64,000 nucleotides of DNA from a virus: positions 6,982 to 70,981 of IMG/VR virus record IMGVR_UViG_3300020420_000873. One strand, written 5' to 3'. This document shows positions 6,927 to 62,064 of this stretch, piece by piece. The notes beneath the pieces are model-generated. The model saw only the letters and a program-made list of their open reading frames with translations. It had not been told where the DNA came from and did no database searches. Each line of letters starts with the position of its first letter. Position 1 is the stretch's first letter. Made by a program: the position numbers and the translations under genes.

Positions 6927-7090
6927 GGTTCCACCTTAGTTTTTTTTGTTTTTTTAGATAAGTTTTCTTGACCTTCTTCTAAATCACTTACCAAATCTTT
7001 AATATCATCACATAGTATTGTAAGGTCTTTTAGTTTTTCATCTAAGGTGTCTGCTTTTTTATATATTTTATCTAATAATTTTTTATTCAT
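6908..7090 (-). CDS. Coiled-coil hypothetical protein
   Basis: Likely start MNKKLL, overlapping neighbours. Confidence 0.55.
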   Translation of the reverse strand: MNKKLLDKIYKKADTLDEKLKDLTILCDDIKDLVSDLEEGQENLSKKTKKTKVEPWQGNL

Positions 7091-17655: not shown

Positions 17656-18872
17656 TGCCAATACTCCTTAAACTCTGGATATACTTCTAAAAAATCAGTG
17701 TTGTTTAATCTATCCATAGTTTCAATGTATTCCTTTGTCGAACTTGGCAACATATTGTTTTCAATGTCAGTATTGTTCATATAATCCAATACATAGTTTG
17801 ACCATTTAACTATTTTGGCCAAACGGTTCTCCTTCAAGTTTTTTAAATTATCTATTTTATTATAAACTCTTTTTGTTACAATGTCTTTCATTTTCTTTGG
17901 TATATGCTGAATATTTAAAGCTTCAGGATATTGTACCAGACTGCAATGAAAAGGACAATCTAACGATTGATAATAATCAATTATATCATCAAATCTAGAA
18001 ATGTTATACAATGAAACTGTACATGTTGTTGTTAAATTAAAAACTTCCGATGGTAATTTGGATTTCAATGTTTTTATATTATTTTCAACAGCCTTCAAAT
18101 CACTTCCTGTTCTTAAATAGCCATGTATTTTTTTATCACCATCTAAACTTACACGACAGTTTATGCGTTTAAATTTGCTCCAAAGATCACTAATATGCCT
18201 ATCTTTTAGTACTATGTTGTTTAAATTTGTATTGTACTCTAACGTAATGTTATTTGCATATGGTAATAGTTTTTCTAACGCATCATAATGCTGAGGTTGG
18301 ATCAATGGTTCTCCTCCTGCTATAACTATTTCTTCTACTCTTGGCCCTATATCATTAACAACTTGATTAAAAGTTTCTAATGGTAATTTTGCTATGCCAC
18401 GCCATGTACTTGTTTCAGTCAATTGGTATTTGTCAAATAAACGTTTTACTTCGTCATGCTTGTTTACTGCAACTGCCCACGTTGAACTATATATTGACGA
18501 GCAGTGTCTACATCTCAAATCACACACATTACCAAAACGTAACTCGATTGTTTTAACGTTCATTGGCAACTCACCATCGTTTACTTGTTTTAAAACATCC
18601 GGTATATACTTTTCATAATCTTGATTACACTGTTGCCTAGTTGATACAACATTTGCTTTTTCCATATCCCAACAACTTTTACAACCTTCATGCTGTATTC
18701 CATTCATTAGATTGTTACGTATTTTTTTATAATTTTCGTTGTTCCATATTTCTTTTAATGTTTTGTCTCCATAGTGTCCTAACGAATCATGATTACGCCA
18801 ACAAGCACTAACAAATCCTTTTGGCTTTAAGTTCATATGAATAAACGGCATTATGCAGAATGTTTTAGACAT
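17652..18872 (-). CDS. Radical SAM protein, N-terminal twitch domain
   Basis: CIMPF..GCKSC, CDLRCRHC, GGEP, SLDG. Confidence 0.9.
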   Translation of the reverse strand: MSKTFCIMPFIHMNLKPKGFVSACWRNHDSLGHYGDKTLKEIWNNENYKKIRNNLMNGIQHEGCKSCWDMEKANVVSTRQQCNQDYEKYIPDVLKQVNDGELPMNVKTIELRFGNVCDLRCRHCSSIYSSTWAVAVNKHDEVKRLFDKYQLTETSTWRGIAKLPLETFNQVVNDIGPRVEEIVIAGGEPLIQPQHYDALEKLLPYANNITLEYNTNLNNIVLKDRHISDLWSKFKRINCRVSLDGDKKIHGYLRTGSDLKAVENNIKTLKSKLPSEVFNLTTTCTVSLYNISRFDDIIDYYQSLDCPFHCSLVQYPEALNIQHIPKKMKDIVTKRVYNKIDNLKNLKENRLAKIVKWSNYVLDYMNNTDIENNMLPSSTKEYIETMDRLNNTDFLEVYPEFKEYWQ

Positions 18873-20133
18873 GTATCACCTCTGCTAGTTCTGGAAATGT
18901 TGTACGCCAATTTTCACTTCGAACATCATCAATTAGATTTGCTTTTTCTAGAAATTCATTTGAGAGATCGTTTGAAATATAGTTCAATCCTTTTGATACT
19001 TTACTGTAACTTTTTTCTACAATAGATAATATTACTTCATTATTATTGTGTGTTGATATTAATTGTTTTTTATGTTGCTGTACTATTTCTTTTATCTTAG
19101 ACTGATTGTTAGAACTAAAATTTGACAATGAAAGATACTGTGGTGTTTGCGCCAGATGTAGATCTAAAAAGTCTTTAGTTATAATTTCTTTCGGAAAATG
19201 ATCAGCTATCCAATTTATAAATTCTTTTAGATACAGAACATTGTATATGGTTAAAGTATGTCCTATCACAACCGATACATTCAAATGTTGTTGACTTACT
19301 TTTACCCATTCTGTAGCTGAATCCATAACTTTTTTCCATTGCGATCCTTTTCTTAAAAATTCTGCTCTTTCGCCGATTGCATCAAGACTTAAATCTATTT
19401 TAGCACTTTTAAATTGTGGTATTAACTTTCTGTATTGTTCTTTTGGAAAGAATGAACAATTTGTAAAAACTTCTAAATGTATGTTTTTTGCTAGATCCCA
19501 TTTAACTAAATTAGATAAAAATGTTTGAAATTGATCATTTAAAAAAGGCTCACCTCCTGTTGCTTTTACATTTTTTAAATGCTTTACAGTATCATATTTT
19601 ATTGATGACAACGACTCATTTGTTTTTGGCAGTTGTTTTATAGTGATGTATTCGTGATGTTCATTGCCAAAAAAGTTTTTTATAAGACTTTCATTTTTAT
19701 CTAAATCTTCATCCCATGTTGTTGACAATTTAGGTCCACATGATCTACATTTTAAATTACAAAATCTTCCTGTTTGAATTTCAAGAAACTCTAATTCTGT
19801 TTCTGAATATTTAGGATCCTTATTATAGTCATAGCTTATCTCACTGTTTGTATCAATTGCACTTTCACGCATTGATTTAATGCCTGCTTCTTCATCTTGA
19901 TAGCATCTCCAACATCCTTTTATTTTTTTACCATTTAATGATTTGTTTCTTATTGTTTCCCATATTTTTTTATAACCTTTATCAAACGATTTAGGATAAA
20001 CTTGTCCATCATCTTTGTATCTACAGCATGGTACAATCGATCCGTCTGGAACTTGCATTACCGCACCGCGGAACAAATATGGGCAATAGGTTTTGTTGTT
20101 TTTCAAATCAATCATTTTATAAGTATACAGCAA
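18865..20133 (-). CDS. Radical SAM protein, N-terminal twitch domain
   Basis: CPYLF..PCC..GCWRC, CNLKCRSC, GGEP. Start may be MIDLK. Confidence 0.9.
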   Translation of the reverse strand: MLYTYKMIDLKNNKTYCPYLFRGAVMQVPDGSIVPCCRYKDDGQVYPKSFDKGYKKIWETIRNKSLNGKKIKGCWRCYQDEEAGIKSMRESAIDTNSEISYDYNKDPKYSETELEFLEIQTGRFCNLKCRSCGPKLSTTWDEDLDKNESLIKNFFGNEHHEYITIKQLPKTNESLSSIKYDTVKHLKNVKATGGEPFLNDQFQTFLSNLVKWDLAKNIHLEVFTNCSFFPKEQYRKLIPQFKSAKIDLSLDAIGERAEFLRKGSQWKKVMDSATEWVKVSQQHLNVSVVIGHTLTIYNVLYLKEFINWIADHFPKEIITKDFLDLHLAQTPQYLSLSNFSSNNQSKIKEIVQQHKKQLISTHNNNEVILSIVEKSYSKVSKGLNYISNDLSNEFLEKANLIDDVRSENWRTTFPELAEVIHV

Positions 20134-32016: not shown

Positions 32017-33246
32017 TTAGATGTTCTCATAATGAGTTGTTACACCAAATGGTGCTTCAAGTTCTTTATCATGATTTGAATGTATTACCCAAAGTGTATC
32101 ACAATAATTTTCATCACCCCAAGAACCCCAAGGATAACCATCTGTGAACACAATCAACTTCTTAGGTTGTACACCATTTTCTTTCATCCAAGTCCAATTG
32201 GCTTCAAATTCTGTACCACCAAAGCCACCTGGTTGATAATCTGTGATATCTTTGTCTGGCGTAAATATTTCCGGATTGTGTACTTCTGTATCAAAACTCC
32301 ATACATGAACTTTGTAATCTTGAAACGAATCCATAATACCTTTCACTTCACCTAAGAATATTTTTAGTTGTTTGTCACTGATTGATCCTGACGTATCAAT
32401 TGCAACACACACATCAACTGCTGGTTCAGGTTGTAGTCCAGGCAATATAGCATCTACTGACCAACCTTTTCTTGAAGGTCTCATAAATGAATAGTCTGAT
32501 TTTACAACTGACGTTATATGTTGATCTAACAACGAACGCCAATCCATTTTAGGCTCAGTCATATTTTTAATCAAACGTTCAACACCTTTAGGTATGTTAC
32601 CTGCGCCTGCCGCCTGTGCCGCCTGTAGTACTGCATTTTTAATTTCGTCTTTTAACTTATCTTTTTCTGCTTTAGACATAGCAGGTTGTTTGCCATCTTT
32701 GCCTTTTCCGTCTTTGCCATTACCATCTTTATCTTTGTCACCTGGTTTTCCTTCACCATCTAAATGCATATCAAGAGTTAATTTAATTTCAACTTGATTT
32801 TTCTTAAGTTCAGAATAAATTTCATCTGAGTTTTTATCATAATATTTAGGATCATGTAAACCTTCTTTAGGCATTTTACCCAATCCTTCACGTACCAATT
32901 GACCATTAATAACATAGTCAGTTGCCATGTTCCAAATCTGTGGCTGTCTACCTTCTCTACGTTCCATGTGATCATATACGCAATGCATCACTTCATGACC
33001 AATAAGAAAGTCTAGCTCATCTGATGTCAAAGGAGTAATAAATTCTCTGTTGTAAAATAAATGCATACCATCGGTTGCCGCGGTTGGACACCAATCGTCA
33101 GCATTTTTAAGTTTTAATCTTGTTGCAAGATTGCCAAAAAACGGATGTTTCAATAAAAGACGTACTCTACTTTGTACAATTCTTTCACGAATTTCGTGAT
33201 CTTCTTGTATGTTTATCTTTTTCTTTAGTGCAGTTTTCTTTGCCAT
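32017..33246 (-). CDS. Metallopeptidase-like/vWA protein (DUF2201 type), MoxR partner
   Basis: HPFFG, TAATDG, HEVMH, MIDAS DTSGS, GGT, FTDG. Confidence 0.9.
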   Translation of the reverse strand: MAKKTALKKKINIQEDHEIRERIVQSRVRLLLKHPFFGNLATRLKLKNADDWCPTAATDGMHLFYNREFITPLTSDELDFLIGHEVMHCVYDHMERREGRQPQIWNMATDYVINGQLVREGLGKMPKEGLHDPKYYDKNSDEIYSELKKNQVEIKLTLDMHLDGEGKPGDKDKDGNGKDGKGKDGKQPAMSKAEKDKLKDEIKNAVLQAAQAAGAGNIPKGVERLIKNMTEPKMDWRSLLDQHITSVVKSDYSFMRPSRKGWSVDAILPGLQPEPAVDVCVAIDTSGSISDKQLKIFLGEVKGIMDSFQDYKVHVWSFDTEVHNPEIFTPDKDITDYQPGGFGGTEFEANWTWMKENGVQPKKLIVFTDGYPWGSWGDENYCDTLWVIHSNHDKELEAPFGVTTHYENI

Positions 33247-33269
33247 TTTGTTTCTCTCTGTTTATATTA

Positions 33270-33302
33270 TATATAATAGCATCATATAGGTATCTGTCAA
33301 CC
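33270..33302 (-). repeat. 33-bp promoter, copy 1
   Basis: GGTTGACAGATACCTATATGATGCTATTATATA, identical to 37489-37521. Confidence 0.85.
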
Positions 33303-33342
33303 TCTTTTTGGCCAGAAAAAAGTCAATAATATCAACAATTTA

Positions 33343-33660
33343 TTACACGCCACCATAGTAATAACTGATTAATCCTGATAAAAATATAAATGTAGCCACA
33401 CTATTAATGAAGATTAATGCTCTATCGTGCCATAAAAAGCCAACAATTCCCCAACCTATCACTCCAGTTAAGTGAAACCATAGATTAAATGGCTGTACAT
33501 CAGCTGACGTGAATGCCATTCCTATTAAAATAATAAAACTTGATGCCCATTTGATGTACCAAGACAGATCGTATTTAGGTGTCACTTTTTTAAATACCCT
33601 TGATGAATTTAACTTTTTTATTTTATCGTTAAGTTTTTCGTTAATTGGTTCTATTGTCAT
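33343..33660 (-). CDS. DUF6552-like membrane protein
   Basis: WYIKW.SS..PFNL..GW..VG.LWHDRALI..N. Confidence 0.65.
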   Translation of the reverse strand: MTIEPINEKLNDKIKKLNSSRVFKKVTPKYDLSWYIKWASSFIILIGMAFTSADVQPFNLWFHLTGVIGWGIVGFLWHDRALIFINSVATFIFLSGLISYYYGGV

Positions 33661-33841
33661 ACTCTTTTTTTGTTATCATTTCTAATTCTACTGCATCTAC
33701 TTTAGCATATTTGTATAAAAAGTCAACCGATTCCATTAAGCTGGCATAAGTTTTCTCCCACCAATAAACTGATGAAGACAACTCTCCTCTTGTCACGGTT
33801 ACTTTGTAATACACGTCACTCACGATGCTATTTTCTCCCAT
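33641..33841 (-). CDS. Hypothetical protein
   Basis: Small ORF in operon; start uncertain. Confidence 0.55.
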   Translation of the reverse strand: MGENSIVSDVYYKVTVTRGELSSSVYWWEKTYASLMESVDFLYKYAKVDAVELEMITKKEYDNRTN

Positions 33842-34050
33842 GCTAAAAATCCTTTAACAATATCTTTGTCTTTAGCTTTTTTAAATGCAAAATAACTTCC
33901 GCCTGCTATGTAATACCAACCTGTGGCATTTCTCCTAACTGTTACTGCAAGTTCTTTCTCTACTTGTTTATCAAGTATAGGAAGATCAATCACATAGTAT
34001 TCACCTTTGTAATTCATGAATTCTTTTCTTGTTAGTTTCCTAGACTTCAT
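33820..34050 (-). CDS. Hypothetical protein
   Basis: Overlap-coupled ORF. Confidence 0.6.
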   Translation of the reverse strand: MKSRKLTRKEFMNYKGEYYVIDLPILDKQVEKELAVTVRRNATGWYYIAGGSYFAFKKAKDKDIVKGFLAWEKIAS

Positions 34051-34420
34051 TGATTGCTTTCTCTATTTTTTTATAATAGTCATCAAACGTTTCTGCTTCT
34101 TCTCTGGTCAGGTATGCTACAGAACCAAAACAAGGATAGCCATTTACACCACTTGGAAACCGATCTTTCATATTTGCATAAAACATACAAGGCTTGTCTT
34201 GATGCATTCCTTGACCCATATCAGGTGACATCAGCATCAATGGCATGAACACACTTGGTATATCGTTGGGATCATGTATTTGAAAACTAGTAAACACTTC
34301 TCCACGATATACTTGTTGTGCCAACTCTTTTAAAAACTCCTTTGACTTTGAAGGACGTTTCTTACGACTTTTTTTATTAACTTTATATTCTTTTATATCT
34401 TCTTTTTTTATTTCAAGCAT
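34040..34420 (-). CDS. Hypothetical protein
   Basis: Likely start MLEIK; VFMPL..NGYPCF.S. Confidence 0.65.
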   Translation of the reverse strand: MLEIKKEDIKEYKVNKKSRKKRPSKSKEFLKELAQQVYRGEVFTSFQIHDPNDIPSVFMPLMLMSPDMGQGMHQDKPCMFYANMKDRFPSGVNGYPCFGSVAYLTREEAETFDDYYKKIEKAINEV

Positions 34421-35435
34421 ATTCTTTCTTATTTTTGTAGACACCTTTTAAGGCACAACTTTTGATACATCTAGGTAAATGATTATCGTGAGATGCATAC
34501 CATCTTTCTTTTAAAGATGTATAAAAACTATTTTGTAATATTTCACTAATAGTATTTTTTGTAAGATCATTAAAATCTTTATCATCAGACATTACCACGT
34601 CGTTATATGATTTTTTAGATTGATCATACAAATAGCAACAAGGCCACATTGTCATATCAGCACCAATGTAAACTTCTGGTTCATTATAGTGTTGACATGT
34701 GATTGTTTTTACAATGTCATTTATTGTCTTTACACTTTTTTCTTTTATTACTTTCTGTAACTTTGTCAAGTCATTGTGTGGTAATTTCTTTGACGCAGTT
34801 AATTTTACTTCGGTATCCATTTTTTTAGTTTTATGAACTTTTTTTGCAAGAACATTACGACCACTTGTTCTTTTAATAAATCTAAAACCAAGTTCGTTTG
34901 ATAGTTGTTTTGCCTTTTCGTATTCATGTTCATTGTGAGCAAATGGAATAAACACCCATGCACCTTTTCCTCCTGCTTGAGAAAATGCTTTCATGTTCCT
35001 TAAAAGAATATCCCATTTAACATTTACTCGATAAATGTGATTAGTTTCTTCAAATCCGTCTACACTGAAGTCAACTTTTAAATTTTTAACTTTGGCAAGT
35101 TTGCTCCACCACTCTGGTGTATTGTAACCACCGTTGGTACTAATGATTACATTACCACCTTTATTGCCCAACCATTCACATATTTCTAAACATTGTGAAT
35201 GGACTATTGGATCTCCTAATACTCCACATAATTTAAATTCTTTACCTTTTACTGATTCTTCAGTTTTAAAAAGATTCATAATATTTTCTAATGATATTTC
35301 TGAATTCCCTCTCAATGGCATACCCATTTCTGTTCTGGCACATAAAGGACATTGTGCGTTACAATTGGCACTGATTTCTAATTCATATTTTTTTATGTCA
35401 GCTTCAATCATCTTTGTCCTTGTCATATCCATCAC
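34413..35435 (-). CDS. Radical SAM protein, C-terminal twitch (paralog of 5104..6153)
   Basis: CNAQCPLC, GDP, TNGG, NHIYRVNV.WD, WPCC, RCIKSC. Confidence 0.9.
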   Translation of the reverse strand: MMDMTRTKMIEADIKKYELEISANCNAQCPLCARTEMGMPLRGNSEISLENIMNLFKTEESVKGKEFKLCGVLGDPIVHSQCLEICEWLGNKGGNVIISTNGGYNTPEWWSKLAKVKNLKVDFSVDGFEETNHIYRVNVKWDILLRNMKAFSQAGGKGAWVFIPFAHNEHEYEKAKQLSNELGFRFIKRTSGRNVLAKKVHKTKKMDTEVKLTASKKLPHNDLTKLQKVIKEKSVKTINDIVKTITCQHYNEPEVYIGADMTMWPCCYLYDQSKKSYNDVVMSDDKDFNDLTKNTISEILQNSFYTSLKERWYASHDNHLPRCIKSCALKGVYKNKKEYA

Positions 35436-35688
35436 TCATTGATTCATTAATATCATTTAAGTATCCAGCGAAACAATTTGGTGGATTAGTGTACTCAGGT
35501 GAAAGAGTAGGATCATATACAAATTTTGTGTAACAATAAGTGCAATGTTTGTGATCATCATCTCCCATAGTATAATAAGTGTGTGGATGATCGTTAGGTG
35601 GTTCACAGCCAATGCAAATAAAACCTTTGGTACCAATCTTTATTTCAGATACTCCAATGTCATTTTTATAAAAATATTTTCCTGCCAT
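35404..35688 (-). CDS. zf-CHCC zinc-finger protein
   Basis: C.G..PP.DHPH.Y..C.YC...F.Y. Confidence 0.75.
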   Translation of the reverse strand: MAGKYFYKNDIGVSEIKIGTKGFICIGCEPPNDHPHTYYTMGDDDHKHCTYCYTKFVYDPTLSPEYTNPPNCFAGYLNDINESMSDGYDKDKDD

Positions 35689-35870
35689 TAATGAACTGTT
35701 TTGCTACCTTTAAGTAAACCCATCTCACTCATATTTTCATATAGTTTATTTTTTGTAGATTTCCAAAAATTAAGAGACCAATCATCGCAAGAATTTTCAA
35801 TAGCGATATCACAATTTTTTAATAATCTATTATACATTCTTTGTAGATCTTCTTTTGTTGCTATTATCAT
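35688..35870 (-). CDS. Hypothetical protein
   Basis: TAATG-coupled on both sides. Confidence 0.65.
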   Translation of the reverse strand: MIIATKEDLQRMYNRLLKNCDIAIENSCDDWSLNFWKSTKNKLYENMSEMGLLKGSKTVH

Positions 35871-36283
35871 TATTTTTTCTCCTGGTTTGATTCTATTCCA
35901 TATTTTGCAAGTAGCATACTAAAATACTTTTCTGTTTTTCTTATAGCCTGTGCAAGTTTAGGACTGATGTCTGTACTGAACAATTCAGTGTATTCCCATA
36001 TACCTTTTTCATTGTGAGGTTTAAAATAACCATTTACTGCTTGGTCATGTAGCTCTTGTGTATATGATTGAATCTTATACAATTCGTTATTGTGTATGTA
36101 ATTAAAAATACATCCATTGCATTCGACATATTTTTCGTACCATCTTGATTCAGCAAGATTTGGTTTTTCTAGTTTAGTTATTTCTCTATCTTCATTAAAA
36201 TATAAAAAATGAGATACGTTATCCCACTTTGTGTCAGGATGTTTTAAACTTTTTAATTTAAAAATGAATATTTTGTTTTGCAT
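35870..36283 (-). CDS. Hypothetical protein
   Basis: 137-aa ORF; GATAAGTA 5 nt upstream. Confidence 0.6.
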   Translation of the reverse strand: MQNKIFIFKLKSLKHPDTKWDNVSHFLYFNEDREITKLEKPNLAESRWYEKYVECNGCIFNYIHNNELYKIQSYTQELHDQAVNGYFKPHNEKGIWEYTELFSTDISPKLAQAIRKTEKYFSMLLAKYGIESNQEKK

Positions 36284-36305
36284 ACTATTACTTATCTTAT
36301 AGGGC

Positions 36306-36355
36306 GGGGAACTGATCTACGTTTTAAGAGCAGAGAGAGGCAGATCTAGTTCCCC
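36306..36355 (-). ncRNA. GC-rich stem-loop downstream of moxR with CUCUCUCUG in the loop
   Basis: 15-bp stem with one bulge and one GU pair, 19-nt loop, no U-tract. Confidence 0.5.
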
Positions 36356-36365
36356 TAACGGCATT

Positions 36366-37457
36366 CTAAACGTCTACGATTAGTTTGCCGTATCTCTTAT
36401 AAAACTCCTTAAAGCTCTTAAGCTCTTTAGGGGAAAACGGTAGTTGATGATTTTTTAGTGCTATTCTGGCACCTAATACTACCATTTCAGTTTCAAAATT
36501 GTCCATCATGTATTGCAAGAAACAATCTGCCATTGAATGCCAAGGAGCCATTTTCTTATTCTTCTGCGCCTTTTCACATTCGTCTTTAAGTTCATAACAC
36601 AATGAAGTAATCAACGAGTACATAGCACTCACTTCATTTGTGTCAAGTTTCTTAACCTTACCACTCAAAATATCACTTGGGTTTGGTAATTTACCAGCAA
36701 CCTCTCTATGTGCATTAAATTTAACTGCAAGGCCTTCGCCTACTGCACCTGTGATAATATCTGTAAGTTGTGAACCTTGTAAACCACTTGACTCTAACAT
36801 GTCACTTACAAATGACCAAGATCTTGGAGTAGCAAATGCTCTAGAAGAACTTCTTGGATCAAAGTCATACAAGTCATTTTTAGCAAATGTTAAGTAACCA
36901 ACTACATCTGGATGGATGCCATTGTTAGTTGCCCAATTTTGCCAGTCTTCAAAGTTAACTGCCATTTCAATATGCAACATTCTGTTAGCAAGTGGTGAAG
37001 GCATTCTATAAGTAACACCTCTATCACTTTCTCTGTTACCAGCCGCCACAATTGACACACCAGCTGGCAATTTATAAGTACCAATCCTTCTATTAAGAAT
37101 TAGCTGATAAGCCGCCGCCTGTACACTCTGTGGTGCCGCATTAATTTCATCCAAGAATAAGATGTCCGTTGCTTTCGGATCACTTGGAAGATCAACTGGT
37201 GGTGCCCAATCCATTTTGTTTTCTTTAGAATTAAAGTATGGAATACCACGCAAGTCTGTTGGTTCTAAAAGAAGCAATCTCAAATCAATGACATTTCTTT
37301 TGCTGTCTTTACCAATTTGTTCAATAATTTCTGATTTACCTATTCCTGGAGGACCCCATATCATCACAGGACGTTGTGCGTTAATACAAGCAATAATCTC
37401 AGCTTTTACGTCTGCTGGTCTTACTGTTCTGCTGTCTGTTGTAGTTGTTTTTACCAT
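36366..37457 (-). CDS. MoxR-like AAA+ ATPase
   Basis: GPPGIGKS, LFLDEIN, AAGNR, PLANR, TPRSW. Confidence 0.92.
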   Translation of the reverse strand: MVKTTTTDSRTVRPADVKAEIIACINAQRPVMIWGPPGIGKSEIIEQIGKDSKRNVIDLRLLLLEPTDLRGIPYFNSKENKMDWAPPVDLPSDPKATDILFLDEINAAPQSVQAAAYQLILNRRIGTYKLPAGVSIVAAGNRESDRGVTYRMPSPLANRMLHIEMAVNFEDWQNWATNNGIHPDVVGYLTFAKNDLYDFDPRSSSRAFATPRSWSFVSDMLESSGLQGSQLTDIITGAVGEGLAVKFNAHREVAGKLPNPSDILSGKVKKLDTNEVSAMYSLITSLCYELKDECEKAQKNKKMAPWHSMADCFLQYMMDNFETEMVVLGARIALKNHQLPFSPKELKSFKEFYKRYGKLIVDV

Positions 37458-37488
37458 TTTATCTCTCTCTGTTTAAATGTTTATTAAG

Positions 37489-37521
37489 TATATAATAGCA
37501 TCATATAGGTATCTGTCAACC
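37489..37521 (-). repeat. 33-bp promoter, copy 2
   Basis: Identical to 33270-33302; TTGACA-N16-TATTAT with extended TG. Confidence 0.85.
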
Positions 37522-37587
37522 AGAAAAATGCATTTTGTTGGTTAAAAAAAGCCAATAAAATCAATGGTTTAAAAGAAAGTTAAAAAA

Positions 37588-37971
37588 TTAATCAAAATTT
37601 GGTGAATAATCTTGGTTATTTACTGTGCAATTTCTTGACCAAAGTTCAACATCACCATCGATTAGTTTAAGATCTACGGCATCTTTTTCGTTGAAAACTA
37701 CAATCTTCTTATTATCAATGTAGTATGGAAGAAGCATTTCTTTTTCAAGATTATGTATGTGAATTGTCTTCACACTAAATGGTTGTTTAATTTTGATTAC
37801 ATATGAAGGAAAATGTTCTTCTAAAATTTGTATGCCTATTTTTGTTAGCCGTAAGGAATTATCACTTAATCTGCTCACAAACATATTAAGTATTTGTGCT
37901 TCGGTTATGCCTTTAGATTTGACATAATCGATCACAATTTTTTTATTATGGTTGATTAATTGGTGTGACAT
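37588..37971 (-). CDS. Hypothetical phage protein
   Basis: 127-aa ORF, SLRLTK.G..PYYI. Confidence 0.7.
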   Translation of the reverse strand: MSHQLINHNKKIVIDYVKSKGITEAQILNMFVSRLSDNSLRLTKIGIQILEEHFPSYVIKIKQPFSVKTIHIHNLEKEMLLPYYIDNKKIVVFNEKDAVDLKLIDGDVELWSRNCTVNNQDYSPNFD

Positions 37972-38251
37972 TCAACTTCTTTCCAGCTGTTAAAACATGC
38001 ACTGAAAAGTCGTTACATTTGAACAGTGCATTCAATTTTTCTGCTAAATTAATTGCGTGTCCTGAATTTGAAAATGATACTTTCTTATATTTTGGTCCTG
38101 GATAATTCACAAGTGTGTTCAAAGACCTAAGGTTCACTGGAGCATCTTTATAGAAAACCGCATAGATGGCTTCTGCCTTAAGAACTTGCTCACTCTTATA
38201 GTTCTTAGGATTTGTAAATTCTAGTAATATTTCCGGTTTTGGTCTACTCAT
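37946..38251 (-). CDS. Hypothetical phage protein
   Basis: MSRPKP.ILLE..PKYKKVSFSN.GHA.NLA; GGAG RBS and GATAAATA. Confidence 0.75.
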   Translation of the reverse strand: MSRPKPEILLEFTNPKNYKSEQVLKAEAIYAVFYKDAPVNLRSLNTLVNYPGPKYKKVSFSNSGHAINLAEKLNALFKCNDFSVHVLTAGKKLNVTPINQP

Positions 38252-59221: not shown

Positions 59222-59833
59222 TTACTCATCTGCTTCTCCTTTAAATTGATCAAACGTAACTGCTGATTCAATTTTTATTATATGATGATTCAAAGCAAGT
59301 TTACATAGCATTACATCATCATGCTCTGTTAAGTATAATACAGGATTACACCAATATGATCTCCATCTTTCTTTTTCTTTCAACAATTGACTTAAAGTTG
59401 AGCCGTATCTAAATCTAGTTGGATCTTTTTCTGTAAAGAAACTAGAAAACCAATCAATAGACTTTTGCATATCAGTGTGAGCTCCAAAAGTAATTTTGTA
59501 TGGATATCTATCCCAAAATAATTTTTTTCTTGTGATAGAATCTTTATTTTGCATCAAATGTTCATAGTGTTTTTTGTTGTATGGTTCAAAAACTTTGCTT
59601 ACCCATTTACCATAATTATTAACCACGTATTCTAAATCTTTGCGTTTCTTAAAAAATAATTGTACTGATCTAGCATGACGCATCTGTTGTTCAGATTTTG
59701 GTATTTTTCTTAACCATTGGATCATTTTTCTCATGTTTGCATAATATTCATCCAAATCAAAAGATTCTTTTTCCATTACTGCTTTGTAAGGGAATTTACC
59801 ATAAAATAATTTTGTTGTTGTTTCAAATTGCAT
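59222..59833 (-). CDS. Hypothetical protein with internal duplication
   Basis: KLFYGKFPYK and KLFWDRYPYK halves. Confidence 0.7.
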   Translation of the reverse strand: MQFETTTKLFYGKFPYKAVMEKESFDLDEYYANMRKMIQWLRKIPKSEQQMRHARSVQLFFKKRKDLEYVVNNYGKWVSKVFEPYNKKHYEHLMQNKDSITRKKLFWDRYPYKITFGAHTDMQKSIDWFSSFFTEKDPTRFRYGSTLSQLLKEKERWRSYWCNPVLYLTEHDDVMLCKLALNHHIIKIESAVTFDQFKGEADE

Positions 59834-62064
59834 TATTGTTTATATTCTATTTCTAATTTATCATTAACTGCTTTAACTAATGCTGTTCCACCATTAATTA
59901 ATTTACCAAATAGTATTTCTTTTGATAATGGACGTTTAATGCTTTGATCAAATATTCTTTGCATTGGCCTTGCACCCATTGCCGGATCAAAACCTTTGTC
60001 AGCGACCCATTGTGCCGCCGTATCATCAAGCACCACGATAACTTTTTTATCTTTAAGCATTTCATTTGTTTCATCTTTAACTTTATGAACAATTTTTAAA
60101 ATGTTTTCTTTTGATAATTTGTTAAACTGTATTGTTGCATCAAGTCTGTTTCTAAACTCAGGTGCAAAGAAGTCTTTAACATAATCATCCGTTTTGTTTA
60201 TCGAGTCAGGAACCCCAATACCCATCGGTGGTTTTTCACTTGCCTGTGCACCTAAGTTAGAAGTTAAACACAAAATGACTTTGTTAAACATCACAGTTTT
60301 ACCTGTTGAAGATGTTAGTTTACCGTCATCCATTACTTGTAACAATACTTGTAATACTTCTGGTGCTGATTTTTCAACCTCGTCAAGCAATAATACACAG
60401 TTTGGATTGTCTTCTACATCGTTGATCAGTTGTCCTGATCCAATTGATCCTTCTGCATATCCTACATATCCTGGAGGTGCACCAATTAATTTTGATACTG
60501 AATGTCTTTCTTGATATTCTGACATATCATATTTTAATAATTTAATACCTAATGAATCTGCTAATTGTCTACAAACTTCTGTTTTACCAACACCTGTTGG
60601 ACCTACAAACAAGTAAGACCCAATTGGTTTGTTAAATGGTCTTAGCCCTGCTTTTGCAATCATGATCGAATCAACTAATTTTTCAATTGCTTCGTTTTGA
60701 CCATATACTTTTGTCTTAACTTTGCCTTCTAGTCCAGCATAGTTATCTGTTTGTTTTTCATCAATAACGTCCATAGGCACGTTTGAAATTTTACTTACTT
60801 GCTGTTGTATCATATGTTTTGTAACCGATGGTGCTTGAGCCAATTTTGCTTTTGCTCCTGCGGCATCAATTACATCAATTGCTTTATCTGGTAAAAATTT
60901 ATTATGTATAAATCTATCTGCAAGATCTACTGCTAAATCAACACAACCATCGTCATATTTTGTTTGGTGAAACTTTTCATAGTATGTAAGAATACCATTT
61001 AAAATTAATTTTGAATCTGTTTTACTTGGTTCACCTAAATCTAATCTTTGGAAACGTCTCATTAACGCACGATCTTTTTCAAAGTTTTCTCTGTACTCTT
61101 CTATTGTTGTTGTACCAATACATAATAATTTACCTTTTGCAAGTATTGGTTTCAGCAATGTACCAAAGTCCATGTTTGATTGTCCGGCACTACCTGCACC
61201 CATAATCATGTGTACTTCATCAATGAATAAGATAACATCTTTTTTCTGTTGTAATTTTTCTAATACTACTTTTGCACGTTCTTCAAAATCACCTCTAAAT
61301 TTTGTACCAGCTACTAATGAAGCAACGTCTAATGAGTAAACTGTTTTATCTTTAATTGCATCAGGCACTTGTTTATCTACAATCTTTTTTGCAATACCTT
61401 CTGCTATGGCTGTTTTACCAACACCAGGTTCACCAACAACAATACAATTATTCTTTTTACGTCTTGCAAGAATGTGTACAATGTCATCTAATTCTGGTTC
61501 TCTACCAATTAAAGAATCAATTCTACCGTCTTTTGCTTCTTGATTTAAATCAGTACAGTAGTCTTCAAATTTAATCGGACCACCACCTGGCTCACCACCT
61601 TGTTGTCTTTCTTGTAAATGTACATCTTCTCCATATCTTTCTTTTGTAAGCTGTTCTATGATTGCTTGTCTTGTGATATTATTTTTCTTTAAGAAGTATA
61701 ATGCATGGCTATTCTTTTCACTTAATAAACTTACAAATATATCTTTTATGGTTAATTTTTTTCTACCAGAAAATATAACCTGTGTTACTGCTCTATTGAA
61801 AACTCTCTCTAATGCTGAAGTTTTTCTTGGAGCATCTGTTGATTCTACAACAATGTCTTTTAATCTACTGTCAAGATACTGCATACAGTCGACCATGATT
61901 TGATCAACTTCACCTTTGACTTCAGTAATTAACGATTGTATTTCTTTTTCATTAACTAGTGCTAACAAAAGGTGTTCTAGAACTACATACTCGTGGTTAC
62001 GTTCTGAAGCATATTCCATTGCTTTATCTAGTACGGATTCTATTGGATCATATTCTTCAGCCAT
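59833..62064 (-). CDS. clpA: ClpA-like Hsp100 ATPase
   Basis: Clp-N HEY..LEHLLL, GEPGVGKT, GPTGVGKT, LIGAPPGYVGY, MGIG loop, GARP. Confidence 0.9.
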   Translation of the reverse strand: MAEEYDPIESVLDKAMEYASERNHEYVVLEHLLLALVNEKEIQSLITEVKGEVDQIMVDCMQYLDSRLKDIVVESTDAPRKTSALERVFNRAVTQVIFSGRKKLTIKDIFVSLLSEKNSHALYFLKKNNITRQAIIEQLTKERYGEDVHLQERQQGGEPGGGPIKFEDYCTDLNQEAKDGRIDSLIGREPELDDIVHILARRKKNNCIVVGEPGVGKTAIAEGIAKKIVDKQVPDAIKDKTVYSLDVASLVAGTKFRGDFEERAKVVLEKLQQKKDVILFIDEVHMIMGAGSAGQSNMDFGTLLKPILAKGKLLCIGTTTIEEYRENFEKDRALMRRFQRLDLGEPSKTDSKLILNGILTYYEKFHQTKYDDGCVDLAVDLADRFIHNKFLPDKAIDVIDAAGAKAKLAQAPSVTKHMIQQQVSKISNVPMDVIDEKQTDNYAGLEGKVKTKVYGQNEAIEKLVDSIMIAKAGLRPFNKPIGSYLFVGPTGVGKTEVCRQLADSLGIKLLKYDMSEYQERHSVSKLIGAPPGYVGYAEGSIGSGQLINDVEDNPNCVLLLDEVEKSAPEVLQVLLQVMDDGKLTSSTGKTVMFNKVILCLTSNLGAQASEKPPMGIGVPDSINKTDDYVKDFFAPEFRNRLDATIQFNKLSKENILKIVHKVKDETNEMLKDKKVIVVLDDTAAQWVADKGFDPAMGARPMQRIFDQSIKRPLSKEILFGKLINGGTALVKAVNDKLEIEYKQ

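Follow-up and report, generated by a model that had tools for sequence, protein, structure and literature searches.

A candidate element in the 3′ region of phage moxR genes complementary to the ribosome binding site of the same gene

The moxR locus and its 3′ hairpin

The DNA considered here is a stretch of 64,000 nucleotides (nt) from the IMG/VR virus record IMGVR_UViG_3300020420_000873 (positions 6,982 to 70,981), hereafter the window, which represents 64 kb of a 70,981-nt phage-like contig with a G+C content of 34%. Its minus strand carries a moxR-like gene followed by a hairpin, the loop of which contains the exact complement of a stretch of the moxR ribosome binding site (RBS). In related phage loci the sequences behind moxR are different and fit the RBS of their own gene, which suggests that the moxR 3′ region harbours an anti-RBS element comparable to that of the icaR mRNA of Staphylococcus aureus. 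The locus comprises the following features, in which SD stands for Shine-Dalgarno and aa for amino acids.

36366..37457, minus strand: moxR-like AAA+ ATPase gene, 363 aa (Pfam AAA_3, AAA and AAA_5; phrog_1297, E 1.3e-101)
37489..37519, minus strand: moxR promoter, TTGACA, 16 nt, TGcTATTAT (extended -10), with 11/12 matches and the TG present
37463..37471, minus strand: moxR leader target CAGAGAGAG, at -14 to -6 from the ATG (SD position), five bases short of the ATG
36306..36355, minus strand: 3′ hairpin behind moxR (5′ arm 36355-36340, loop 36339-36321, 3′ arm 36320-36306)
36327..36340, minus strand: loop motif CCUCUCUCUGCUCU (anti-RBS), 14 nt, opening with an anti-SD-like CCUC
32017..33246, minus strand: vWA-like partner gene, 409 aa (DUF2201_N and DUF2201; phrog_1314)
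33253..33260, minus strand: vWA leader CAGAGAGA, an 8-nt match to the loop and part of the duplicated TAAACAGAGAGA leader
33270..33300, minus strand: second exact copy of the promoter, ahead of the vWA-like gene (2 exact 31-nt matches, 0.00 expected)

The vWA-like protein combines a DUF2201_N metallopeptidase-like domain (E 1.9e-43) with a DUF2201 VWA-like domain (E 9.6e-20), and the locus shows the MoxR plus VWA gene context, in which the gene of an AAA+ MoxR-type ATPase has a VWA-domain gene as companion. In the Pfam search, the bpMoxR match of the moxR product falls below the cut-off. Both 31-nt promoter copies are followed by the TAAACAGAGAGA leader. Transcription of moxR is expected to start near 37485, judging from the promoter, and the resulting leader of about 28 nt is unstructured (-3.4 kcal/mol, z 0.20). 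Ahead of start codons GAGG is enriched 16-fold, indicating that the phage uses Shine-Dalgarno sites; CAGAGAGAG can therefore be regarded as a weak SD variant.

The hairpin RNA folds into 8 base pairs (bp), a 1-nt bulge and 7 bp, including a single G-U pair, below a 19-nt loop (CUCUCUCUGCUCUUAAAAC). Its minimum free energy (MFE) of -22.6 kcal/mol corresponds to z = -2.61 and was equalled by 3 of 200 shuffles. The loop stretch CUCUCUCUG, at 36331-36339 and thus 27-35 nt past the moxR stop codon, is the exact complement of the leader sequence CAGAGAGAG, and a further 5 bp are predicted between UUUAA at 37473-37477 and UUAAA of the loop. The predicted loop-leader duplex (-16.4 kcal/mol) contains 14 bp in two helices of 9 and 5 bp. 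A preliminary description, made from the letters of the window, had reported a 15-bp stem at 36306-36355 on the mRNA strand, a loop complementary to the moxR leader at 37463-37471 and an 8-nt match at the vWA leader (33253-33260); coordinates and sequences proved exact. It had also pointed out that the hairpin has no U-tail, and the sequence after the stem, GCCCUAUAAGAUAAG, indeed contains no U-tract. As in icaR, the motif complementary to the SD/RBS belongs to the same transcription unit as its target and occupies the untranslated 3′ portion of that unit.

An intrinsic terminator was considered for this hairpin and rejected, given its 19-nt loop, the missing U-tract, its absence from the output of the terminator scan and the three RNA-library contigs that span it. 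The top matches of the promoter scan include no promoter-like site between moxR and the hairpin, and a search of the 64-kb window with Rfam 15 at the gathering score returned four tRNAs only, with nothing at 36306-36355. The next gene, encoding 137 aa, starts 23 nt past the hairpin. The intervening GATAAGTA (36284-36305) is also present in loci L001-L118, where it is conserved about 8-12 nt ahead of the start of the 137-aa gene; it is not SD-like.

Within this genome, CAGAGAGA has the same three occurrences whether the window or the full 70,981-nt contig is counted: in the two leaders and as the complement of the loop. This compares with 1.5 occurrences expected, and at least three were found in 20 of 100 shuffles; moreover, the two leader copies count as one event, because the exact 31-nt promoter is duplicated before both genes. 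When the 80 nt past each stop codon of the contig were compared with the -22..+3 window of every gene (91 genes), the longest match of a 3′ region to its own RBS was that of moxR, with 9 nt. A genome-wide habit of self-matching in this phage was ruled out by the same comparison (self 5.14, non-self 5.40). The observation exceeds chance only through its relatives.

Conservation of the loop in the moxR clade of the window

Relatives were collected by searching IMG/VR with the MoxR protein, with 80 of 112 retained, and by searching metagenome contigs with the same protein (80 of 201 retained). The clade of the window, hereafter clade A, comprises 44 loci (L001-L003, L081-L118 and L124) with MoxR proteins 73-100% identical. 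From the loci with at least 80 nt of flank and from the window itself, 31 distinct 80-nt 3′ sequences were obtained.

The 14-nt motif CCUCUCUCUGCUCU is invariant in all 31 sequences, in which the stem and the distal loop vary. The hairpin is likewise kept in 31 out of 31, with stems of 13-19 bp containing 0-3 G-U pairs, and the motif is essentially unpaired in the local MFE structures, where at most its first 1-3 nt are engaged. The stems fall into types characteristic of subclades (GGGGAACUAGAUCUG, GGGGACUAGUUCUA, GGGAAACUUGCUCA and GGGGAGCCUGCUCA), and compensating changes, altering both sides, are found in 5 of 9 consensus stem pairs. Only nine pairs were scored, because the MAFFT alignment misplaces the bulge; folds of the individual sequences were used in addition. 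Conservation of the loop had been proposed as a check on the preliminary description, and the result is in its favour, the motif remaining constant while the stem around it varies with compensation. The proposal that the G-U pair favours this strand was borne out in part: it fails for the window alone (-22.6 kcal/mol on the sense strand, -23.5 on the other) and holds for the family, in which the sense strand folds better in 24 of the 31 sequences (means -22.2 vs -19.4 kcal/mol).

The leaders of clade A vary yet stay purine-rich and complementary to the loop (CAGAGAGAG, AAGAGAGAGG, GGAGAGAGG and GCAGAAAGAGG). Those with GCAGAAAGAGG pair at 10 of 11 positions, with one A-C mismatch. At its start, the loop of the clade has the anti-SD-like CCUC, and the SD core GAGG forms the end of most leaders.

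Replacement of the paired sequences in other clades

Clades C and D/E were extended by two more IMG/VR searches, for which the L078 and L016 proteins served as queries (80 loci retained from 518 and 319 relatives). In the other clades, the MoxR proteins of which are about 60% identical, the 3′ sequences are different and each is complementary to the SD-to-AUG stretch of its own gene.

Clade B: 3′ element GUGAGAGUC; own RBS GACUCUCAC-AUG
Clade C: 3′ element GGGCUGUGU(U); own RBS (A)ACACAGCCC-AUG
Clade D: 3′ element UUGCGCUCC; own RBS GGAGCGCAA
Clade E: 3′ element UUGCUCCU; own RBS AGGAGCAA
Clade F: 3′ element UUGACUCC; own RBS GGAGUCA or GGAGUUAA (U-G wobble)
Single lineage L308: 3′ element UACUCCUUU; own RBS AAAGGAGUA

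Another example of a 3′/RBS pair outside the clade of the window is GGGCUGUGUU/AACACAGCCC. In each locus of 7-13 kb, the motif and its complement are almost confined to these two places. With clades carrying different 3′ sequences, each fitting its own RBS, the central proposal of the preliminary description, that an element behind moxR pairs with the moxR RBS, appears to hold for the family.

The manner in which the anti-RBS is presented differs between clades. In clades A and B it occupies the apical loop of a long hairpin, and in clade C the top of a terminator-like hairpin, where a local copy of the RBS sequence partly pairs with it. In clades D, E and F it is displayed as a single strand from 2-25 nt past the stop codon, followed by a terminator with a U-tract, so that in clades C to F the anti-RBS is located in or ahead of hairpins with U-tracts. 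Partial pairing to a local RBS copy was seen in L078, L167 and L176, about 25-45 nt past the moxR stop codon, and in L049, at 4-20 nt. In the ACACAGCC clade these copies form ACACA...UGUGU, and in the GGAGUUAAC clade they form GUCAAC...GUUGAC. In loci of the L167 type the terminator stem itself consists of the anti-RBS copy and the RBS-like copy, an arrangement that looks like a decoy or a switch. In addition, a third copy in sense orientation, GACTCTCA(C) or GACTCTCAC, is present at L036:7167-7175 and L047:4984-4991, within the spacer of the next promoter. It lies some 35 nt past the loop copy and might compete for the loop when transcription reads through, or represent a site acting at the DNA level.

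In a FastTree phylogeny of 105 representatives, each type forms its own clade, and the types are separated by clades without the feature. Among the 105 clusters described below, 8 belong to type A, 7 to B, 20 to C, 2 to D, 1 to E and 7 to F, and 7 have another strong pairing.

Statistical support and controls

Loci without an assignable start codon or with less than 80 nt of 3′ flank were excluded (18 of 161 in the 50-cluster set), and identical sequences were merged before the statistics, the 105 clusters being derived from 210 distinct RBS/3′ combinations. The Watson-Crick run of a 3′ region with its own RBS exceeds that of mismatched pairs in sets of increasing size.

37 clusters: own-RBS run 6.84; mismatched 5.56
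50 clusters: own-RBS run 6.88; mismatched 5.58
105 clusters: own-RBS run 6.83; mismatched 5.51

The duplex energies of the 105 clusters show the same tendency (own -13.8, mismatched -10.7 kcal/mol), and none of 20,000 permutations reached the observed run or energy. Runs of at least 8 with the own RBS are found in 39 of the 105 clusters and runs of at least 9 in 25, compared with 7.3% and 2.8% of the mismatched pairs. The permutation test is conservative, because the mismatched shares are inflated by relatives of the same type. All runs of at least 8 fall between -15 and +2 of the start codon. In control windows, runs of this length occur in 3 of 104 clusters (-60..-36) and in 1 of 104 (+41..+65), and the RBS window gives 39 of 104.

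Relatedness was addressed by a binomial test at the level of clades, obtained by cutting the MoxR distance tree, in which the median own-RBS run was compared with the cross-clade rate. With 29 clades, the median run is at least 8 in six and at least 9 in five (p 0.003 and 7e-5). With 20 clades the corresponding numbers are four and two (p 0.003 and 0.008), and with 18 clades again four and two (p 0.002 and 0.007). These cuts were made at distances of 0.15-0.25. Cuts at 0.30-0.40 merge clades B, C and F and lose the signal, to the point that at 0.40 no clade retains a median run of at least 8. Between clades, the permutations, the clade-level p values and the negative controls point to a pairing under selection, as expected of an icaR-type element.

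Finer correspondences are visible within two clades. In clade B, the RBS forms CAC-AUG, CAUG, CAAUG and CAUAUG go with the loop ends (AU)GUG, AUG, AUUG and UAUG, respectively, with L047, L141 and L154 as exceptions. In clade C (the ACACAGCC clade), 53 distinct combinations were tabulated for the number of Cs before the AUG and of Gs in the loop: 12 are (2,2), 7 are (2,3), 34 are (3,3) and none is (3,2). AA is accompanied by UU in 8 of 8 cases, and 20 of the mismatched ends are compatible with G-U on the sense strand, compared with 2 that are A-C. Taken at face value, this tabulation looks strong. Covariation of loop and RBS, the check suggested in the preliminary description, is found between clades and is not significant for single bases within a clade once phylogeny is controlled. 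The case rests on the replacement between clades and on the controls, not on single-base covariation.

The vWA-like partner gene and the RNA-library contigs

In most relatives the vWA gene follows moxR by -1 to about 1000 nt and has its own promoter, and, apart from the SD, its RBS shows no match to the moxR anti-RBS. The clade of the window retains the duplicated promoter; as read from the leaders, the vWA leader of the window matches the loop over 8 nt, that of L001 over about 7 nt and that of L003 over about 4 nt. When the vWA RBS was compared with the 3′ region of vWA itself in 39 clusters, the run was 5.15 compared with 5.26 for mismatched pairs, 3805 of 5000 permutations reached the mean, and a self-run of at least 8 was found in one cluster. 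The idea of vWA as a conserved second target was consequently abandoned, the match not being kept in relatives and vWA giving no signal. The feedback on both partners envisaged in the preliminary description is not supported either: the vWA match is derived from the duplicated promoter and leader, is not conserved and has no counterpart in vWA itself.

In the window, the loop ranks moxR second (-16.4 kcal/mol) and vWA third (-15.8) among the 91 RBS windows of the contig, for which the median is -7.7 kcal/mol. Regulation of both genes is possible in this lineage and is not the conserved function. The top pairing among the 91 genes (-19.0 kcal/mol) is with an unrelated small gene outside the window (contig about 4244-4528, minus strand), the RBS of which reads AGAGAGC...AAGAGGUGA.

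An island of about 3 kb (33343-36283, minus strand) separates moxR from its vWA partner in the window. It contains a radical-SAM/SPASM gene (34413-35435), a zf-CHCC gene (35404-35688), a DUF6552 gene (33343-33660) and several small open reading frames. The promoter duplication may have arisen together with the insertion of this island.

Part of the stretch is present in six RNA-library runs, four of which were examined, as contigs that carry neither transcript ends nor strand. The contigs cover moxR, and three bridge the hairpin (36221-36419, 36175-36325 and 36291-36457). A contig of run X17 contains the shared promoter (37489-37518) and continues into the vWA leader, not the moxR leader. The presence of promoter sequence in the X17 library suggests read-through transcription or DNA carry-over.

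Points that weigh against an anti-RBS function

Several observations speak against the interpretation of the 3′ sequence as an anti-RBS of moxR, or reduce the weight of the evidence for it. Within the contig, runs of at least 9 occur in 84 of 8190 mismatched gene pairs (1.0%), and about one such gene is thus expected by chance. The feature is absent from 53 of the 105 clusters and from the closest cultured relatives inspected, PA5oct and Phosso, which have plain terminators or lack a complement. The assignment of start codons was based on homology. The loop of clade A is conserved more than its target, so that it may have another partner. The bridging RNA-library contigs fit a read-through into the next gene, which is a weak hint, DNA carry-over being possible as well.

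Two further points concern strand and single positions. The A-C mismatch of the GCAGAAAGAGG leaders would be a G-U pair on the other strand, and among 22 strong cases the duplex energy is better for the sense strand in 12 and for the antisense strand in 10. In clade C, covariation at single positions is not significant by phylogenetically independent contrasts (p at least 0.5), a test that is underpowered. Among five supported pairs differing in the RBS, the loop follows in one or two, changes in the opposite direction in none and is unchanged in three or four; at the AA/UU position the loop changed in 0 of 3 pairs.

Interpretation and alternative explanations

The complementarity between the moxR 3′ region and the moxR leader is conserved, is replaced between clades and is restricted to the moxR RBS. 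On comparative grounds, the moxR 3′ region probably carries an icaR-like anti-RBS element that closes the RBS of moxR itself, a reading to which we assign a probability of about 0.6. We infer formation of the pairing in vivo, its action within a single molecule and a repressive effect. Repression of initiation is likely, given that the SD and/or the spacer and AUG lie within the paired stretch. According to this model, the strong sigma-70-type promoter would give rise to an mRNA with a short unstructured leader, on which ribosomes would load during transcription. The 3′ element would be made about 1.1 kb later, and its loop (CCUCUCUCUG...) would then pair with CAGAGAGAG and UUUAA (9 + 5 bp, about -16 kcal/mol), closing the RBS and capping the MoxR output per transcript. 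The paired mRNA would probably be exposed to decay, as for icaR and for distant anti-SD-like sequences.

A more elaborate version of this model, which we regard as speculative and rather doubtful, is that the element acts as a translation-sensing timer, each mRNA counting its own translation before shutting its RBS. The anti-RBS would become available only after full transcription of the gene. In clades where its distance from the stop codon is within a ribosome footprint or where an RBS mimic partly holds it, terminating ribosomes would melt the mimic and thereby free the anti-RBS. In the lineage of the window, further mRNAs may be targeted in trans by the invariant anti-SD-like loop. If true, the timer would represent a family-wide and repeatedly re-invented 5′-3′ feedback device in phage mRNAs.

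The loop of clade A could also belong to a stable small RNA, released or processed from the 3′ end of the transcript, which would act in trans, as an antisense or anti-SD RNA, on moxR, here on vWA and possibly on other mRNAs. The main argument for this explanation is that the loop is more conserved than the moxR leader, as would be the seed of an RNA with multiple targets; the hairpin also has the classical antisense architecture (a long stem, a bulge and the complement of the target in the loop), and moxR and vWA rank second and third among 91 RBS windows. However, no conserved internal promoter precedes the hairpin, the stretch at the stop codon being variable (TAGAAT, TAATTT or TAAACA), no U-tail defines a 3′ end, and the pairing with vWA is not conserved. 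Furthermore, three other clades show a bare single-stranded anti-RBS, from a few to about 25 nt past the stop codon, without a stable hairpin, and the best score goes to an unrelated small gene, as can happen by chance among 91. Overall, a small RNA seems unlikely.

Covariation of the kind seen here indicates that a pairing is selected, not the sign of its effect, and the contact between the two ends of the moxR mRNA might be protective, shielding the leader or the 3′ end from ribonucleases and stabilising the mRNA. A precedent exists in hbs, in which a 14-bp pairing between the 5′ and 3′ untranslated regions (UTRs) is described to modulate cleavage by RNase Y (PMC5737220). This possibility is improbable for moxR, as the pairing extends in every clade over the SD and/or over the spacer and the opening bases of the AUG, which should exclude the 30S subunit, and distal anti-SD-like sequences are reported to be inhibitory and destabilising (PMC12697547).

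It is very improbable that the two sites are inverted repeats functioning in DNA, as regulator or recombination sites flanking moxR, with no RNA pairing involved. Complementarity in RNA is by nature an inverted repeat in DNA, the strand test based on duplex energy is nearly balanced (12 vs 10), and in one subclade the next promoter has the third copy of GACTCTCAC, in sense orientation, within its spacer. On the other hand, the upstream copy always follows the promoter and is part of the transcript, at -15 to +2 of the start codon, and the downstream copy is always inside the 3′ hairpin or before the terminator. The preference for G-U-compatible over A-C ends in one clade (20 to 2), the U-G wobble required by the GGAGUUAA/UUGACUCC pairs and the stems with 0-3 G-U pairs, which fold better on the sense strand in 24 of 31 sequences, all point to RNA. 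As far as examined, no neighbouring DNA-binding gene covaries with the motif.

Finally, the hairpin could be only an intercistronic stabiliser, a weak terminator or a processing site, phage intercistronic hairpins being well known as RNase III sites (e.g., in T7), and its match to the leader a coincidence aided by low-complexity (CU)n/(GA)n sequences; in this genome alone a 9-nt match is expected about once among 91 genes, and three RNA-library contigs continue past the hairpin into the following gene. This is hardly credible, as coincidence leaves unexplained why the 14-nt loop is invariant and the stems vary, why five or six other clades have complementary pairs of different sequence and why the control windows and vWA give no signal. 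A processing role would be compatible with the anti-RBS reading and would not replace it.

Other features of the contig

The contig encodes a DNA polymerase, tail-fibre-like proteins, a Lon-like protease and four tRNAs. The tRNA genes are arranged as two pairs on the minus strand (416-573 and 1734-1890 of the window), with the specificities Arg(GCG), Gln(UUG), Met(CAU) and Ile(GAU). A 743-aa protein encoded at 59833-62064 (minus strand) matches the ATP-dependent protease family phrog_4871 (E 3e-246); together with the MoxR/vWA pair, this amounts to a second AAA+ machine in a 71-kb phage. Two separate radical-SAM genes are present on the minus strand, one at 18865-20115, with a weak QueE-like match, and the other at 34413-35435. 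A megablast search of positions 33000-38000 against GenBank phages gave no match, and a protein search found only relatives with identities of at most 53%.

Comparison with known systems

Long stable stems are also known from antisense systems of the IS10 RNA-OUT/RNA-IN type, where the loop they present base-pairs with the RBS and 5′ end of a target mRNA. Such RNAs are transcribed from the strand opposite to the 5′ end of their target and act in trans, whereas the moxR element is on the same strand, 1.1 kb downstream, and in the same transcript. In T7 gene 1.2, an intercistronic hairpin region downstream of the gene can reportedly pair with its RBS and lower translation (Saito and Richardson, 1981). 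The T7 effect is said to be tied to the cutting of the polycistronic early mRNA by RNase III, and there is no sequence relation to moxR.

A literature search, which was weak in that its 3′-UTR term remained unmatched, found no published phage case or account of the moxR element, and the titles and abstract openings of the MoxR and phage literature mention no regulation of a phage moxR. On comparative evidence across a phage gene family, the element appears to be an unreported form of a known kind of regulation.

The pairing of the two untranslated ends of one mRNA is shared with hbs of Bacillus subtilis, where it also involves 14 bp (PMC5737220). The hbs pairing differs in that it modulates the RNase Y cleavage of the leader and is protective, and the account given of it there describes no block covering the RBS. 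A second point of reference is the preprint of Gill et al. (2025; PMC12697547), according to which anti-SD-like sequences hundreds of nt past the RBS pair with it, promote decay and inhibit initiation. The physical principle is the same and the distance similar (about 1.1 kb in moxR). However, that work is described as relying on synthetic 8-mer substitutions in B. subtilis reporters, with anti-SD-like sequences being depleted from natural genes, whereas the moxR element is natural, conserved and tracks its RBS, arguing for selection in favour of the pairing and not against it. The discussion of the preprint names only three natural long-range cases.

The closest analogue is icaR of S. aureus, in which an anti-SD motif in the 3′-UTR is reported to pair with the SD of the same mRNA, blocking initiation and creating a substrate for RNase III (PMC3868564). 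The icaR motif is a pyrimidine-rich anti-SD sequence, and clades D, E and F (UUGCGCUCC, UUGCUCCU and UUGACUCC) would be its direct phage analogues. The differences are several: moxR is a phage gene and not a cellular regulator, the two show no sequence relation, and the moxR 3′ region is short (about 50-80 nt) compared with icaR's long 3′-UTR. In addition, the clade of the window displays the motif in the loop of a long hairpin, and two moxR clades pair at the spacer and AUG instead of the SD. The icaR mechanism was established experimentally (PMC3868564), and the moxR element is known from the comparison of genomes.

Natural pairing between the ends of bacterial mRNAs is known, in the reports cited here, from very few cases, all of them found gene by gene. 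In moxR, a whole phage gene family keeps the contact while its sequence is replaced clade by clade, which provides comparative evidence of selection. The natural variants differ in presentation (loop or single strand), in target (SD, or spacer and AUG) and in the presence of a local decoy. If the reading is correct, phages control the amount of a MoxR chaperone-like ATPase at a post-transcriptional level. The comparison of a 3′ region with the RBS of its own gene, with relatives as the control, suggests itself as a search rule for finding further cases alongside icaR.

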